Shown: piece by piece, positions 2,899-62,855 of the stretch
Position numbering within the stretch: position 1 is the first letter of the stretch
Layout of the letters: every line of letters starts with the position of its first letter
Assembly (NCBI GenBank): GCA_031553535.1
Contig: JAVBLM010000019.1
Location: 154,128 to 218,127 of the forward strand
Origin: Bacteroidales bacterium
Lineage (GTDB): Bacteria; Bacteroidota; Bacteroidia; Bacteroidales; WCHB1-69
DNA length: 64,000 nt
Direction: 5' to 3'
Position numbers and translations under genes: made by a program
The notes under the pieces: model-generated
Told to the model about the DNA's origin: nothing
The model's database searches: none
The model's input: the letters and a program-made list of their open reading frames with translations, nothing else

Positions 2899-3345
2899 CG
2901 GATATACTTTCACCGTATTGTGAAAGTGTTTCGACAGTAGTTTTCATACTTTCACGAAGTAGTGAAAGTATGCCGACAGCAGTTTTCATACTTTCGCAAG
3001 GTAGCGAAAGTGTGCCGACAGTAGTTTTCATACTTTCGCAGGGTAGCGAAAGTGTGCCGACAATGGTTTTCATACTTTCGCAGAGTAGTGAAAGTATGCC
3101 GACAGCAGTTTTCATACTTTCGCAGAGTAGTGAAAGTACGCCGACAGTAGTTTTCATACTTTCGCAGGGTAGTGAAAGTATGCCGACAGCGGTTTTCATA
3201 CTTTCGCAGAGTAGTGAAAGTACGCCGACAGTAGTTTTCATACTTTCGCAGGGTAGTGAAAGTATGCCGACAGCAGTTTTCATACTTTCGCAGAGTAGTG
3301 AAAGTACGCCGACAGTAGTTTTCATACTTTCGCAGTATTATGAAA
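2899..3345. repeat. tandem array A: 42-bp unit x ~10.6, each unit with a 9-bp-stem hairpin
   Basis: The unit is GTTTTCATACTTTCGCAGRGTAGTGAAAGTAYGCCGACAGYA. The anchor TGCCGA occurs at 2971/3013/3055/3097 and onward, exactly 42 apart. The inverted repeat is CATACTTTC/GAAAGTATG. Two unit subtypes alternate in the right half, giving an 84-bp higher-order repeat. The edge units are degenerate. Confidence 0.95.
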
Positions 3346-3692
3346 CCTTCCCCCGATGTATTGGAATAGCTCTGAAACATTTTTTAAAATAAAGCCCAAG
3401 TATCCGGACGATATTAACCTTGTTATCCAAGGCAAATATTTATGCTTATCCTAATCGAAATTCTATCTTCGTTGTAATCGAATGATTATTGATAATGAAA
3501 ATTCTAAAATGAGACTTACATCAATAACACTTTGTTTTAATATTATTACGATTACAAGGGACAAGAAAAAACAACCGAACTTGTTCTAATCGCCTAGCCA
3601 TGAAAGAGAAAGAAAAATTAATCCACAAATCAACTTTTGATAAGTTTATTTGCAAATAAATAGGATCCGGAATATTCCAGGTAAAGACAATT

Positions 3693-13345: not shown

Positions 13346-14167
13346 ATGAACAGGACACAACTTATTGAAACAATACAAAAAAAGAAAAGTTTTTTATGCG
13401 TTGGGCTGGATACCGATATCCAAAAAATCCCAAAACACCTTCTGTCTTATGATGATCCCATCTTTGAGTTCAATAAAGCGATTGTCGATGCTACCCTGCC
13501 CTATACGTTGGCATATAAACCCAACCTGGCCTTTTATGAAGCACAAGGATGGAAAGGTTTACTCAGTTTAGATAAAACAATTGCTTATATCCGTTCCAAA
13601 AAAGAGCCTGTTTTCTTAATCGCAGACGCAAAAAGAGGGGATATCGGAAACACCTCCACCCAATATGCCGTTTCATTCTTCGGGCAAACAGATCCGGACT
13701 ATAATTACGACGCCGTTACGGTTGCCCCATACATGGGAGAAGACAGTATCAAGCCTTTTCTGGAATTTGAAAACAAATGGGTGATTCTTCTTGCGCTTAC
13801 GTCCAATAAAGGGTCGTCCGACTTCCAATTACTCAAATATAAGGATCGTTATCTATTCGAAACCGTGTTGGAAACATCCAGACAGTGGGGAGATGCATCC
13901 AAGTTGATGTATGTGGTTGGGGCAACAAAAGCCGAAATGTTGACCGGCATCCGTAAAATTGTTCCGGATAATTTTTTATTAATCCCCGGAGTGGGAGCAC
14001 AAGGCGGAAATCTGGCAGATGTTGTCAAATATGGTATGAATAAAGATTGCGGATTGATAGTTAATGCTTCCCGCAGCATAATTTATGCCTCTCAAGGGGA
14101 AGATTTTGCCCAAAAAGCAGGTGAAGAAGCCCATACCATGCAACAGGATATGGAGAAATATCTATAA
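13346..14167 (+). CDS. pyrF: orotidine-5'-phosphate decarboxylase (type 2)
   Basis: 273 aa with [17 protein letters not shown] and PGVGAQGG. Confidence 0.88.
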
Positions 14168-14451
14168 TCCGTCTATTTTATAGCTATAAAAGGATTTTAA
14201 CAGCCTCCGGATTGTTATCTCTTCCGGCATTACGCTTGGCTTAACAGGAGTTGCGCAAGTTGATAATTTACACAAAATTATAATTTAGTTGTTGAATTGT
14301 TTATCGTTTACGGTTTACACGTTTACTTCTTGTTGGTTTATCTATTTTATTGGCTTTATCCTTTCTGCCTTCTGCATGTTATTTATTCTCTACACGACTT
14401 CATGCCTACCAATGAAAGAGATTGTATTTCGTTCTGAATAAACCTCTTACC

Positions 14452-14516
14452 GTCATGCTGAACTCGATTCAGCATCCCCTTTTTTTAAGGGGGTTGCGGA
14501 TCAAGTCCGCAATGAC
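14452..14516. repeat. stand-alone copy of the 64-nt four-way-junction (cloverleaf) module
   Basis: The sequence is GTCAT-[GCTGAA CTCGA TTCAGC]-[ATCCCC T7AA GGGGGT]-[TGCGGA TCAAG TCCGCA]-ATGAC. The same module occurs at 17070-17136, 55363-55426 and 55788-55851. Confidence 0.85.
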
Positions 14517-14700
14517 GCTCCTGACAAACAAATTACTGTCATCTTCTCGCTGTTTGATATTTCTCATTGGATATTCGCCGTAATGCGTTTCTGTTAATTC
14601 GGTGCATAACTCGTCATTTATAATTCGTAATTCGTAATTTCTTTCTGCTTGCTGCAATTGTTACCTGTAACTTGTGTGATTTCTGAAAAACTATTACAGA

Positions 14701-15144
14701 TTATTTTTTCTTTCTTTTCCTGACGCGATGCCCCCATTCGGACGGATAGCATTTATGTATCCGGTAAAAGAATTGGGAAAAAGAAACAGCGGATGAAAAA
14801 TTCAGCTTTTTACTGATTTCGGCTATTGGTAAATCCGTTTTTTCCAATAGTTCACAGCTTGCCAGGTCTAGATATCCACATATCCATTCCCGGGCTCCTA
14901 TTCCTGTCATTGCCACAATCGCTGATGAAAAAACTATTGCATCCACACCCATCATTGAAGCGTATCTTTGTGATTGTAAATTACCATATTTATGGATAAG
15001 CTGTGCAAAAAGGTTAATAAAATCATTTCCCGTAAGGCGGTTGCCATTCAATTGGGGTAATCCATCCCTGTTAACAGTAATAGAAGAATCAAGTATCGTA
15101 ATAAACACATCGGAAGGAAGGATTTTCTTGTATTTTGTTTCCAT
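14701..15144 (-). CDS. small AraC-type helix-turn-helix protein (DNA-binding domain only)
   Basis: 147 aa. The C-terminal ~100 aa (LLEKTDLPIAEISKKLNFSSAVSFSQFFYRIHKCYPSEW) fits the AraC/XylS HTH. No recognisable sensor domain is present. Confidence 0.6.
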   Translation of the reverse strand: METKYKKILPSDVFITILDSSITVNRDGLPQLNGNRLTGNDFINLFAQLIHKYGNLQSQRYASMMGVDAIVFSSAIVAMTGIGAREWICGYLDLASCELLEKTDLPIAEISKKLNFSSAVSFSQFFYRIHKCYPSEWGHRVRKRKKK

Positions 15145-15302: not shown

Positions 15303-15492
15303 TTAATGCCGGATATTCAAGCATTAAATATATGTAATAAAAGTTAATGTCAGATATTCGGGCATTAAATATATGTGATAAAAGTTAATGCCGGATATTC
15401 AGGCATTAAATATATATGATAAAAGTTAATGTCAGACATTCAGGCATTAAATATATGTGATAAAAGTTAATGTCAGATATTCGGGCATTATA
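15303..15492. repeat. tandem array F: 41-bp unit x ~4.6 with 8-bp-stem hairpin
   Basis: The unit is TTAATGYCRGAYATTCRGGCATTAAATATATGTGATAAAAG. The anchor TTAATG occurs at 15303/15344/15385/15426/15467. The inverted repeat is TTAATGCC/GGCATTAA. Confidence 0.9.
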
Positions 15493-15953
15493 TATATTAA
15501 AAATAGTTGTAGGAAAATAAATCAATATCCGGGACCTTTTATCTTTTATCCTATGAAAACAAATCAAGGCCGGGAATCTATTGTAGATTATTGCCGGCCA
15601 TTATCTGCTTTCAGGGGATAAATGTTCATTTACAGTATAAAATCAAAATATAACTTCATATCAATGGCGATGTTTTCTTTATTATTTACAGAAGTTATGC
15701 AAGATATAGAAATGATGATTAATTCAAAATCCAAGGAGAAGAATTTAAGAAAAATCTGCGGATACCTGCGAAATCTGCGGGAAAAATATTCAGTGAATAA
15801 TGAATAATGAAAAGTGAATGACAAATAAATCCCCTCAACTCCGCAACCTCGAATCCCGAACCTCAAATCTTGTATTAATTTTTATTTTTTAAAACAATTC
15901 TTTCACTGATTTGTTAATAAGTCTGTAAATATATTTAATAAAATATTCATATT

Positions 15954-16956: not shown

Positions 16957-17225
16957 GAACTTGTCAAAAGTTGATATAAAATAAATAGAGATTATCTCAC
17001 TTCGTTTGATGTACTCATCTGCTTCGGGTTCGGGTGCTTTGTCGTTCCTCCTCACAGTGGCGGAAGTGCGTCATTGCGGACTCGATCCGCAATCCCCTCA
17101 ATAAAGAAGGGGATACTGAAACAAGTTTAGCATGACGGTAACAGGTTTGCTCATTGCGAAAAACGAAGCAACAGAGCTTGCAAGCTCAACGGAGTTAATC
17201 TCCTATCTCAACTTTTGACAAGTTC
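16957..17225. mobile_element. MITE-like element copy 1 (269 bp) with 18-bp terminal inverted repeats
   Basis: Left end GAACTTGTCAAAAGTTGA (16957-16974), right end TCAACTTTTGACAAGTTC (17208-17225). It carries the four-way-junction core at 17070-17136 and has no coding capacity. Confidence 0.8.
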
Positions 17226-25049: not shown

Positions 25050-25072
25050 ATTTATTATCATCAACAAATCGA

Positions 25073-25113
25073 GTAGGAAGAAAACAAAGTAGTTTTCTTC
25101 CTACTTTCGTTTT
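25073..25113 (+). terminator. rho-independent terminator of the zinc-ribbon gene
   Basis: 13-bp perfect stem GTAGGAAGAAAAC / GTTTTCTTCCTAC with a 6-nt loop, followed by TTTCGTTTT. Confidence 0.75.
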
Positions 25114-25203
25114 CCGACCTCTCACACCACCGTACGTGCCGTTCGGCATACGGCGGTTCCTTACTTACGATACAACTTTACGATAACAATCCATCAGAAA
25201 TGG

Positions 25204-25542
25204 CTAGTTGGCTCGTTTGAGATTATCGTTGCTCAAGGCACGACTAAGAATAAAACTATGGGCAATATGCCAATAACCCTTGCGGGTATTAGCCCATTCC
25301 CACGCCTTTCTCTTATCAATACCACAGCGTTTGAGATTCTCAAAGCGGGTCTTCACTCTCTTCCAGCATTTCCAGATACACATACGGAGCCTGCTCCTAT
25401 ACCATTCATTCAATGTTTGAAGACGGTTCTTCATATCTGCCAGCTTGAATACTTCAAGCCAACCCAGTATAAAGGAGCCAAGAGAGCTTTTACGCTTCCC
25501 GTAGCCCAGACCGTTACTACGACCGGTCAATTCCTTTTGCAA
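25204..25542 (-). pseudogene. group II intron reverse transcriptase/maturase, C-terminal (X/maturase) fragment only
   Basis: The 112-aa ORF FILGWLEVFKLADMKNRLQTLNEWYRSRLRMCIWKCWKRVKTRFENLKRCGIDKRKAWEWANTRKGYWHIAHS matches the conserved C-terminus of bacterial intron-encoded proteins. The ~300-aa RT palm/fingers region is absent. Confidence 0.8.
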
Positions 25543-25618
25543 GAATACTATTTTTCCCCTTCTTATTTATCCTTTCATTTTCTTATTATCCTGAAAACTT
25601 TACCGGTTTCGCAGGAAA

Positions 25619-25921
25619 AAGAAAATATTTTACTGTTTGGGATAGACATTTTGGGGGAATCTGAAAACATTTTGCCATTTAGTTTGGATATTTTCAGAAG
25701 ATCCGAAAGCAACAAACCATTTGGTTTGGACGTTTCGGAAGATCCGAAAGAAGCAAACCATTTGGTTTGGACGTTTCGGAAGATCCGAAAGAAGCAAACC
25801 ATTTGGTTTGGACGTTTCGGAAGATCCGAAAGAAGCAAACCATTTGGTTTGGACGTTTCGGAAAGACCCGAAAGAAGCAAACCATTTGGTTTGGACGCTT
25901 CGGAAAGATCCGAAAGAAGCA
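25619..25921. repeat. tandem array B: 41-bp unit x ~7 with nested palindrome, inside the intron remnant
   Basis: The unit is GATCCGAAAGAAGCAAACCATTTGGTTTGGACGTTTCGGAA. The anchor ATCCGAA occurs at 25701/25742/25783/25824. The outer inverted repeat is TCCGAAA/TTTCGGA and the inner palindrome is CAAACCA-TT-TGGTTTG. The leftmost units are degenerate. Confidence 0.92.
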
Positions 25922-26528
25922 TCTATATTATATCGAATATTAAGATAAGTTATGAATGATTTTTCCGGAGAGGTTTATTCTTTATTAATGTCCTATCAGA
26001 ACACTTATCAAACAGGCAGGCCTATATCTGTGAGAGACACACTAAGGGGGATATTATCCGTACTTGAAAAAGTCTCAATTTATACCCCGAACTCACATTA
26101 CAATAAGGTTCTGTCCTTCAATACTTGGTAAGGTTCCTGCTGTACATTTTTTTTCATGGGCAGGCTTGTGTCCGTATCTACTATGGCATCGGCTGACTTC
26201 TCACAGCAAGCTTTATACTCCGTGCTTCCGAAAAAAAACATCCGCACGTCTGTGAGACCTCCCCAGTTAAGATTCTATTCTTTCCATCTTATACCTGCTT
26301 GATTTACCATGAACGTTCCCAATAGCTATGGGGCTTTGTTTTGTTTAGCAAACGATCCCACATTCTTTGGCCTTATATCAAGTTTCTGTGCGTCAGGCCA
26401 GATGTTTGCCGCTGACTTCCTTCAGATTCCTTCTCGCGATAGACACCCTTGTCGTTGGCTATACTCTTCCCGCTATCTGGGCGTGTTTAGGACTTGCACC
26501 TGTTAGAATAAAACCATGCTGAACGAAC

Positions 26529-40915: not shown

Positions 40916-40987
40916 AGCCATTGACGAGAGTTGAACTCGTGACCTCTTCCTTACCAAGGAAGCGCTCTACCACTGAGCTACAACGGC
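40916..40987 (-). tRNA. tRNA-Thr (anticodon GGT)
   Basis: The minus strand reads GCCGTTG-TA-GCTC-AGTGGTA-GAGC-G-CTTCC-TTGGTAA-GGAAG-AGGTC-ACGAG-TTCAACT-CTCGT-CAATGGC-T (72 nt). Confidence 0.9.
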
Positions 40988-40995
40988 TTCTATCG

Positions 40996-41068
40996 AGCGG
41001 AAGACGGGGCTCGAACCCGCCACCTATAGCTTGGAAGGCTATCGCTCTACCAAATGAGCTACTTCCGC
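40996..41068 (-). tRNA. tRNA-Gly (anticodon TCC)
   Basis: The minus strand reads GCGGAAG-TA-GCTC-ATTTGGTA-GAGC-G-ATAGC-CTTCCAA-GCTAT-AGGTG-GCGGG-TTCGAGC-CCCGT-CTTCCGC-T (73 nt). Confidence 0.9.
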
Positions 41069-41124
41069 AAAAACAAAGACAGACAATATAGATACACTTA
41101 TTGCCGTTCTTCATTCAATACTCG

Positions 41125-41206
41125 TGGGGGGAGGAGGATTCGAACCTCCGAAGGCTTCGCCAACAGATTTACAGTCTGCCCCATTTGACCGCTCTGGTAT
41201 CCCCCC
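41125..41206 (-). tRNA. tRNA-Tyr (anticodon GTA)
   Basis: 82 nt with a long variable arm. Anticodon arm CAGAC-TGTAAAT-CTG..., acceptor GGGGGGA/TCCCCCC, T loop TTCGAAT. Confidence 0.88.
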
Positions 41207-41233
41207 ATTGAATACAATCATTCAAAGAACGTG

Positions 41234-41307
41234 AGCCACCAGAGGGATTCGAACCCCCGACCCGCTGATTACAAATCAGCCGCTCTGGCCAACTGAGCTA
41301 CGGTGGC
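41234..41307 (-). tRNA. tRNA-Thr (anticodon TGT)
   Basis: The minus strand reads GCCACCG-TA-GCTC-AGTTGGCCA-GAGC-G-GCTGA-TTTGTAA-TCAGC-GGGTC-GGGGG-TTCGAAT-CCCTC-TGGTGGC-T (74 nt). Confidence 0.9.
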
Positions 41308-43269: not shown

Positions 43270-43900
43270 CAACTATTTTATTAGCTATATCATTTTTTTA
43301 AAATATTATTATTATTGTAAATACATGTTTCGCTATTTTGATCTATTGGGGAATGCGGCAAAGCAAAACACCTGTAAAAACAGTTGAAAAGAGATTGAAA
43401 TGATTTGCTATCTTCTTATTGTTTTTTTATTGTTGCCCAGCTTTGTTTTTAGCCTTGTGCAAGAGAACATTCATCTTTTTTCTGAACAGTTATTCTCTAT
43501 AGTAAAACAAGCTAATTATAGTTCATTTAATTTGTTTATCCTCTATGTACATGCGATCTATAATATTGAAAAAGATCCGGGAAGATAAGAAAAAAATGCC
43601 ATAACGCCACACAAAGAGAAAGAATTGTTTGTCTTTATTATAGAACTTGTCAAAAGCTGATGATGAAGTTTTTGAATAACGTTATAGCCATCAATTGACA
43701 GAAAACGTTTTTTGAGATTATTTCATGAAACAAAAATTCTTTAATGTAGTTATGAATGAATCAAATTCTTACAATCAAAAAACATCGACAGATTTAAACA
43801 ACTTCATAATCGAAAAAACTTATAAAGAGATATTCCGAGATATTGTTTTACTATTTTTATTATCTCTCATTTCTTTATTCAAACAAGAACACAAAAGTTG

Positions 43901-54654: not shown

Positions 54655-55150
54655 CAGAGCAGGCGTTCAGATGCCTTAGATACCTGCTTGCAATTCCGGA
54701 CAAAGGTTCAGGAACTCCTGAATACCTGTTTTCAATCTCAGACAAGTATCCGGGAAGTCTCGAAACCCTGTTTCCAGTTCCGGACAATGGTTCAGGAAGC
54801 CCTGGAACCCAGTTTGAAAATTCAAACAAGGAATACAAAAGGGGAAAAACCCTGTTTAAAAATCTAAACAGGGAATATCGCAGATGGAAAACCCTGTTTG
54901 AAAATCCAAACAAGGAATTCCACAGGAGGAAAACCCTGTTTGAAAATTCAAACAGGTAATACCATGACAAAGACTGCCTGTTTGAAAATCAAAACAGGAT
55001 TCATTACGGCAAAGACTGCCTGTTTAAAAATAAAAACAGGGTACATTACGACAAAGGCTGCCTGTTTAGAAATAAAAACAGGGTACACTATGACAAAGGC
55101 TGCCTGTTTGAAAATCAAAACAGGGTCTGTTGCAATGGAAAGAACCGGGA
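54655..55150. repeat. tandem array D: 42-bp unit x ~11.8, two diverged sub-families in one strict register
   Basis: CCTG anchors at 54683, 54725, 54767, 54851, 54893, 54935, 54977, 55019, 55061 and 55103 are all multiples of 42 apart. The right-hand units are GCCTGTTTGAAAATCAAAACAGG+19 nt (inverted repeat CCTGTTT/AAACAGG). The left-hand units carry the palindrome TTCAGGA-AC-TCCTGAA. Confidence 0.93.
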
Positions 55151-55207: not shown

Positions 55208-55500
55208 GAACTTGTCAAAAGTTGACACAAGAATCGATCTTTTGTCAGGGATTATCTCACTACGTTTCGATGCTCTCACCTGCTTCGCGCTCGGGTGCCA
55301 CGTCGCTCGTGCCTCATTCCTGCCTGACAGAGATCAGACCTCGCTCTTAATAACATATTGCCGTCATGCTGAACTTGTTTCAGCATCCCCGTTTTTAAGG
55401 GGATTGCGGATCAAGTCCGCAATGACGCTCTTAACTAATATATTACCATTATCATTTGCGATGAACGAAGTAATCCCTTAAATCAACTTTTGACAACTTT
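55208..55500. mobile_element. MITE-like element copy 2 (293 bp)
   Basis: Left end GAACTTGTCAAAAGTTGA (55208-55225), right end TCAACTTTTGACAAC (55483-55497). The four-way-junction core at 55363-55426 is inverted relative to copies 1 and 3, while the left subterminal arm (TTATCTCACTAC..GATGC.CTCACCTGCTTCGCG) keeps the same orientation. Confidence 0.78.
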
Positions 55501-55673: not shown

Positions 55674-56009
55674 GAACTTGTCAAAAGTTGATATAAAATG
55701 AATAAAGGTTATCTCACTACATGTCGATGCACTCACCTGCTTCGCGTCCGGATGCTTCGTCGTTCCTCCTTACAATGGCGGAAGTGTGTCATTGCGGACT
55801 TGATCCGCAATCCCCTTAAAAACGGGGATGCTGAAACAAGTTCAGCATGACGGTAGCAGGTTTATTCAGAGCGAGAACCGAAATCCGAAGGATTCGGTAT
55901 AGCCAACCACCCGAGCCACGGAGTGTAGCGATTGCATCGACACGTAGCGAGATAACCGAACTTGCGAGCTCAATGGAGTTAACCTCCGGTATCAACTTTT
56001 GACAAGTTC
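55674..56009. mobile_element. MITE-like element copy 3 (336 bp)
   Basis: Perfect 18-bp terminal inverted repeats (55674-55691 and 55992-56009). It has ~30-bp subterminal inverted repeats (GGTTATCTCACTACATGTCGATGCA / TGCATCGACACGTAGCGAGATAACC) and the core at 55788-55851. Confidence 0.82.
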
Positions 56010-62469: not shown

Positions 62470-62855
62470 TTCCCCCTGTAACATCTGTATAAACCTTTCC
62501 GAGAACTGGGACACCTATAAACGAGAGTAAATATATCTTTCCCAGAATTGGGACACCTATAAACGAGGATAAATATACCTTTCCCAGAGTTGGGACACCT
62601 ATAAACGAGGATGAATATACCTTTCCCAGGATTGGGATACCTCTAAACGAGAGTGAATATATCTTTCCCAGGATTGGGATACCTCTAAACGAGAGTGAAT
62701 ATATCTTTCCCAGGATTGGGATACCTCTAAACGAGGATAAATATACCTCTCCCAGAGTTGGGACACCTCTAAACGAGGGTGAATATACCTTTCCCAGGGT
62801 TGGGATACCTCCAAACGAGAGTGAATATATCTTTCCCAGAGCTGGGAAACATTCA
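62470..62855. repeat. tandem array E: 42-bp unit x ~9 with short palindrome
   Basis: The unit is CTTTCCCAGRRTTGGGAYACCTMTAAACGAGRRTRAATATAY. The anchor TCCCAG occurs at 62540/62582/62624/62666/62708/62750/62792/62834. The palindrome is TCCCA-GAAT-TGGGA. Confidence 0.93.

Follow-up and report, generated by a model that had tools for sequence, protein, structure and literature searches.

A 64-nt module recurs four times, in both orientations, in the stretch of Bacteroidales DNA analyzed here (64,000 nucleotides, hereafter the window; ∼36% G+C, with a tuf–rpoBC cluster). The IspH encoded in the window has its closest matches among proteins named “Bacteroidales bacterium”, with 80% identity to the best named hit. 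The original prediction read this module as a gap-free four-way junction, in which three 6-bp hairpins are closed by a 5-bp helix, and took the junction to be under selection. The locus raises the question of which structure has been conserved, the junction as a whole or a smaller element from which it is assembled. We find that the functional unit is best explained as a single hairpin, with a YGTC head, an 8-bp stem starting with AT, a 5-nt loop, and a C-rich tail. The module is a local variant of a known repeat (CGTC-tagged REP, or NTS/SRM) and not a new structure.

Results

The module consists of two inverted hairpin units

All four copies were located where they had been reported (14452-14516, 17070-17136, 55363-55426, and 55788-55851), with the reported sequence arrangement and with every proposed helix able to pair in each. 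The loops differ among copies as described, and the G-T wobble noted in one stem lies in copy 1 (GGGGGT). The arm word TTGCGGA-N5-TCCGCAAT is present at 4 of 4 module sites, on both strands; with up to 3 mismatches allowed, the window holds 9 matches where shuffles predict 1.4, and a count of 9 did not arise in any of 100 shuffles. The module is real and non-random. A shared flanking word, CTGAATAAACC, was confirmed at 14434-14444, and its reverse complement occupies 55859-55869, one base off the position first given.

Each module resolves into two mutually inverted units. From 5′ to 3′ on its own strand, a unit comprises YGTC, AT plus a 6-bp stem, a 5-nt loop (CTYGW), the complementary stem plus AT, and CCCC. 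The head is CGTC in seven of the eight window units and TGTC in the eighth; the loop is CTTGA, CTTGT, or CTCGA; and all eight have a 5-nt loop and a CCCC tail. The stem ends are AT..AT in every unit except unit 1b, which has AT..AC, and the wobble of copy 1 arises because this unit carries AC. One further conserved base per unit lies just outside the module and had been missed, namely C or T before GTCAT and G after ATGAC. The closing helix of the proposed junction corresponds to GTC plus AT of the first unit facing AT plus GAC of the second, and its central helix to the two AT plus CCCC tails. Both helices pair automatically, because they are made of the invariant head and tail of two inverted units. 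The units, the dimers they form, and the composite elements around them are as follows.

14424..14543, no strand assigned: fragment of a composite element, carrying dimer 1
14451..14479, plus strand: hairpin unit 1a, with CGTC head, AT plus GCTGAA stem, CTCGA loop, TTCAGC plus AT, and CCCC tail
14489..14517, minus strand: hairpin unit 1b, which in minus-strand reading has CGTC, AT plus TGCGGA, CTTGA, TCCGCA plus AC, and CCCC
16957..17225: composite palindromic element with an 18-nt terminal inverted repeat, carrying dimer 2
17069..17137: dimer 2, a TGCGGA unit (plus strand), an 11-nt spacer, and an ACTGAA/TTTAGC unit (minus strand)
55208..55497, reverse orientation: composite element carrying dimer 3
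55362..55427: dimer 3, a GCTGAA unit (plus strand), an 8-nt spacer, and a TGCGGA unit (minus strand)
55674..56009: composite element carrying dimer 4
55787..55852: dimer 4, a TGCGGA unit with head TGTC (plus strand) and a GCTGAA unit (minus strand)

Copies 2–4 lie in the middle of composite palindromic elements of 270–340 bp that are bounded by the 18-nt terminal inverted repeat GAACTTGTCAAAAGTTGA. As single-stranded DNA, the element at 55674..56009 folds into a long rod enclosing the three hairpins. Copy 1 had been described as stand-alone; its similarity to the others continues for ∼50 nt past the module, making it a fragment of such an element, and it sits between the convergent pyrF (ending at 14167) and an HTH gene (ending at 14701). 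Solo words resembling the composite elements also occur near 3630-3645 and 43643-43660 of the window.

The units are CGTC-tagged REPs

The suspicion that the module is a relative of hairpin-based REP elements is borne out by the anatomy of the unit. CGTC-tagged REPs (Di Nocera 2013, PMC3733652) have a head of CGTC or TGTC (CCTC also occurs), an unpaired terminal tag at one end of a palindrome, followed by an 8–9-bp stem that almost always starts with complementary A and T, a 4–5-nt loop, and an unpaired 3-nt tail of consensus CCA. Their dimers are predominantly tags-outside (HH), heterodimers of units with unlike stems are frequent, and the ends of some spacers are complementary; the Bacteroidetes/Chlorobi are among the hosts, and dRS3 of Neisseria is a member (PMC3733652). 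All eight window heads are of the CGTC or TGTC type, the AT-plus-6-bp stems and 5-nt loops of all window units agree with this description, the tail is CCCC, and all four window sites are tags-outside dimers. Tails in relatives read CCA, CTC, CCC, or CTA. A four-way junction, then, reads too much into what are two inverted copies of a known hairpin repeat: the module belongs to a catalogued family with a simpler structure.

Di Nocera 2013 found no dedicated transposase for CGTC-tagged REPs (PMC3733652). The association between this kind of repeat and a GIY-YIG nuclease, together with its mechanism, is already published (Chenal 2025, PMC11893778). NTS (CGTCATTCCCGCGMAVGCGGGAATCYRG) and related SRM hairpins flank ssnA in many phyla, and the ssnA product is a 94-aa single-domain GIY-YIG protein (cd10448). 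SsnA binds the NTS hairpin only as single-stranded DNA and on one strand only, does not bind RNA, and cuts a few nucleotides upstream (5′) of the hairpin head (PMC11893778). Cutting depends on the three bases that precede the palindrome and binding on the C that follows it, and the Neisseria enzyme requires a specific stem sequence in addition to the hairpin shape (PMC11893778). Single-stranded binding and cutting are known for four Neisseria and Wolbachia enzymes, 71% of Ssn homologue loci carry an SRM, and the Ssn system lowers Neisseria transformation by NTS-bearing DNA (PMC11893778). The NTS-ssnA-NTS layout resembles an insertion sequence, with mobility raised as a hypothesis only (PMC11893778).

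We compared the collected units with the published SRM pattern, HGTCWYN(0-2)YYVSBRHN(0-5)WNVSBRGN(0-2)RNCYNB. This pattern, a search tool derived from 29 genomes and not a functional definition, matches none of the window units, whose heads and tails fit and whose GCTGAA and TGCGGA stems fail, and it matches 57 of 438 collected units overall.

Stems vary and stay complementary within single units

Relatives were collected by scanning one genome per species with the skeleton GTCAT-N17-ATCCCC-N6-12-GGGGRT-N17-ATGAC, which returned 95 loci against about 0.5 expected by chance (our own estimate). Class I loci have window-like arms and come from Bacteroidales, Marinilabiliaceae, Prolixibacteraceae, Rikenellaceae, and MAGs labelled Clostridiales/Oscillospiraceae, with many of the MAGs originating from termite-gut metagenomes. 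A second class with arms CCYGAGCGNAGCGARGG is found in Acidobacteriota, Thermoanaerobaculia, Armatimonadia, and Proteobacteria. The search pattern left the base before GTCAT free; among the 141 hairpins that GTCAT precedes, 94 have C at this position and 43 have T. The extended inverted repeats around the module are limited to the window, a Marinilabiliaceae MAG, and a small number of other lineages, and among the 95 genome loci searched there was no match beyond the ∼80-nt module region of the window elements. Because it is restricted in this way, the larger MITE-like shell seems to be lineage-specific and to lie outside the conserved unit.

Several observations concern individual loci. The second class includes L002, L027, L051, L053, and L062; by our reading of the sequence, its arms CCYGAGCGNAGCGARGG fold on one strand only into a GCGAAGC mini-hairpin enclosed by tandem G.A mismatches, and in several of its dimers the outer stem positions differ between units and are complementary within each. 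In the dimer at L050 (91-156), neither arm complements itself (TCCGGA..TTCAGC), yet each is the exact inverse copy of the other, which leaves one long hairpin as the only possible fold; the dimer has the look of a recombinant of two stem types.

Covariation was measured on 57 distinct class I modules (alignment A2). The side stems are 96% paired, 11 of their 12 pairs change on both sides (for example, UA/GC/CG or GC/AU), and every shuffled and slid control scored far below them. A single long hairpin pairing arm to arm was rejected as a model: it scored worse than the shuffles, and many sequences leave its variable positions unpaired, as many as 65% of them at the outermost positions of the arms. 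In this set the closing and central helices do not vary, both having been fixed by the search pattern, and they show no independent covariation. The proposal that structure is under selection is supported for the side hairpins, whose stems vary and stay complementary, and is not supported for the four-way junction as the selected unit.

We repeated the scan on metagenomes with heads and loops fixed and the center left free. Tails and spacer ends vary among these dimers yet remain complementary (CCAG/CTGG, CTCT/AGAG, CCCC/GGGG, CTAT/ATAG, CGCT/AGCG, and AACA/TGTT). This complementarity follows from the presence of two inverted copies of one unit and needs no selection for pairing. Several dimers have spacers of 6–8 nt (CCATGG, CTTGAG) that are unable to form a hairpin. 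Single units were found at 59 sites versus 192 tags-outside dimer sites, in samples that had been chosen for dimers. The stem ends are AT..AT in 390 of 413 related units, and the rare double changes (AC..GT, GC..GC) compensate within one unit and not across units, which supports an 8-bp unit hairpin.

A GIY-YIG gene lies between inverted units in relatives

An all-against-all comparison of the ORFs within 2.5 kb of the module at the 95 loci revealed no family recurring across many genomes; the link to a GIY-YIG gene came from genes lying between neighboring units. A small single-domain GIY-YIG gene is flanked on both sides by inverted units at five loci (L086, a Prevotellaceae MAG; L181; L202; L218; and L226). 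At L202 the gene is bordered by TGTCATCCCCGCGAAGGCGGGGATCC, which is close to the Neisseria NTS, and by the inverse of this sequence. The 64-kb window itself has no GIY-YIG gene. The original prediction had anticipated a co-occurring Y1 transposase or structure-specific nuclease, and was right in kind as to the latter: the partner in relatives is a GIY-YIG nuclease.

A search from the GIY-YIG protein returned 1574 homologues. Among the 120 closest, 88 have IAGQARND, DCGSSPQ-stop, or LRVKPAMT at the C terminus, and these endings are the three reading frames of the unit GGGGATTGCGGGTCAAGCCCGCAATGAC; that is, the C-terminal tails are encoded by the repeat. Several of the remaining proteins among the 120 have degenerate tails, and some of the 120 encode a whole dimer in the tail (RHAELVSAS…GIAGQARND). 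The DNA around two such proteins, in unrelated contexts, has the same layout of unit, ribosome-binding site, ORF, and inverted unit. One is at L218 (2955-3400), where the Ssn-like GIY-YIG gene and its two flanking units separate hsdS from hsdR in a type I restriction-modification operon; the other lies downstream of a thioredoxin-family gene. At L218 the upstream hairpin unit is inside the end of the hsdS reading frame, and the hsdS/hsdR insertion recurs in at least ten assemblies (also L216-L225). The core of these proteins is ∼95 aa, and PF01541 is the sole Pfam domain in the 120 closest homologues, save one that also matches PF10544. Their best solved relatives are UPF0213 structures, with a weak sequence match (E = 0.03).

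Alternative readings of the module

We considered whether the whole 64-nt module might act as a DNA four-way junction (cruciform or cloverleaf) that is recognized as such, for example by a Holliday-junction-type enzyme, with its gap-free geometry under selection. Each of the four helices is able to pair, relatives have spacer ends that are complementary despite their varied sequence, and the AT..AC variant of unit 1b retains a G-T wobble in the central helix. Folded as RNA, the strand that reads GCTGAA first has the cloverleaf as its minimum, at −29.5 to −30.3 kcal/mol in copies 1, 3, and 4 (z about −5.4); the same strand of copy 2 folds at −22.4 kcal/mol, and the opposite strand prefers a long imperfect hairpin. 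With DNA parameters, however, the minimum-energy fold comprises three adjacent hairpins (8, 4–6, and 8 bp) with the GTC heads unpaired, and the cloverleaf lies 0.5 kcal/mol above this minimum in copies 3 and 4 and 6–7 kcal/mol above it in copy 1. The closing and central helices, being the heads and tails of inverted copies, would pair without any selection, dimers with 6–8-nt spacers cannot form the central hairpin at all, single units are common even in a sample chosen for dimers, and the compensatory changes fall within units. The characterized enzyme, SsnA, also acts on one hairpin. We consider recognition of the junction as a whole very unlikely.

A structured RNA (a four-way-junction ncRNA, a terminator, or an mRNA stabilizer) selected at the RNA level appears highly improbable. 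It would account for the stable RNA folds (z from −4 to −6) and for the position of copy 1 after pyrF, where the left hairpin and a T-run score as terminator-like, and REPs have been proposed to act in RNA. The T-run, however, is confined to this one copy, the copies occur in both orientations relative to neighboring genes, and the Rfam matches in the window at gathering thresholds are tRNAs and a group II intron only, none of which overlaps a module copy. The conserved unpaired head and tail and the link to a gene point instead to recognition of DNA, and SsnA lacks RNA binding. The doublet could also be REPIN-like and mobilized by a REP-associated Y1 (HUH) transposase (RAYT), since an inverted REP doublet is the architecture of REPINs and the Bacteroidetes have RAYT subclasses with atypical structures. 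Against this, the head is CGTC, not GTAG/GTGG, CGTC REPs are reported never to flank RAYT genes, and the gene found between units in relatives encodes a GIY-YIG protein; we regard mobilization by a RAYT as extremely unlikely. The best explanation, and probably the correct one, is that the module is a tags-outside pair of two different CGTC-REP hairpins of the NTS/SRM kind, which would be nicked by an Ssn-family nuclease.

The group II intron matched by Rfam spans 25068-26443 on the minus strand, with D5-D6 at 25068-25158 and D1-D4 at 26272-26443, and has no reverse-transcriptase-sized ORF; the usual place of the ORF is occupied by a 41-nt × 6 array (25675-25921). This is one of five tandem arrays in the window with a period of 41–42 nt, the others being at 2920-3335, 15303-15497, 54683-55126, and 62489-62847, outside annotated genes. 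The unit sequences are unrelated between arrays, and each unit has its own short hairpin.

Dimers as candidate mobile DNA

In a Dysgonamonadaceae MAG (L079), the rplJ-rplL spacer contains the module with short flanks, ∼83 nt in all, and the orthologous site in the window lacks it. This difference is consistent with the gain or loss of a dimer as a unit. In a second Dysgonamonadaceae MAG (L085, 3252-3316), a dimer lies between two tRNA genes of a cluster adjoining tuf; the tRNA cluster of the window (40916-41307) has no dimer.

The short dimers resemble the unit-ssn-unit layout of relatives in miniature and without the gene, and they appear to behave as mobile or unstable intergenic DNA. That they derive from a selfish unit-ssn-unit element by loss of the gene, and are still mobilized in trans by Ssn, is a possibility that we put forward tentatively. 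MAGs with the labels Bacteroidales, Clostridiales, and Oscillospiraceae, many of which derive from termite guts, share a common head, loop, and tail, and the labels of these dimer carriers would point to cross-phylum spread.

Discussion

Our analysis suggests the following model, which draws on analogy with Neisseria and Wolbachia. A cognate small single-domain GIY-YIG nuclease of the Ssn family would be encoded elsewhere in the host genome. When the DNA becomes single-stranded, during replication or repair or as incoming DNA, each strand would offer one correctly oriented hairpin. Ssn would bind this single-stranded hairpin unit and nick the DNA a few nucleotides 5′ of its head, which in a tags-outside dimer would mean one nick per strand, at the outer edges. 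Nicking might move the dimer, restrict how far incoming DNA recombines, as it does in Neisseria, or have both effects.

What looked like an exotic junction in DNA or RNA reduces to a known repeat–nuclease system. The system is extended to uncultured Bacteroidales and to Clostridiales-labelled genomes, with hairpins that escape the published pattern. Where Ssn nucleases are of interest as single-stranded DNA tools, these lineages offer candidate hairpin/enzyme pairs with new stem specificities. For annotation, the repeat explains many GIY-YIG “proteins” with odd tails (IAGQARND, DCGSSPQ), and the identity of the module as a repeat is consistent with the many copies at contig ends. If the short dimers are indeed gene-less derivatives, their sequences would be direct evidence for Ssn systems being mobile elements, now or in the recent past.

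Among known systems, REPINs and RAYTs (Bertels & Rainey 2011) resemble the dimers in that a repeated inverted REP doublet is tied to a repeat-flanked single-copy nuclease gene. They differ in having a GTAG head, a nuclease of the HUH Y1 fold, and doublets in which pairing between the arms yields a single long hairpin, whereas the arms of window-type dimers do not pair with each other. Within the CGTC-tagged REPs, the closest family is CGTC-2 (8-bp stem, 5-nt loop; PMC3733652), a placement made from its text description. Like other CGTC-REP dimers, those of the window are HH, intergenic, and built from different stems, with complementary spacer ends; unlike them, they have CCCC in place of the consensus tail CCA and very short spacers of 8–11 nt, which make the compact three-hairpin form possible. 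With the SRM, the window units share the head (HGTCWY), the hairpin, and the tail (RNCYNB), and the relatives share with the NTS/SRM–Ssn system the unit-gene-unit layout around a ∼95-aa single-domain GIY-YIG protein. The window differs from that system in the absence of an ssn gene, in stems that fall outside the published pattern, and, in contrast to the stem specificity of the Neisseria enzyme, in the presence of two stem types within one dimer. The main text of Chenal 2025 (PMC11893778) makes no mention of Bacteroidota.
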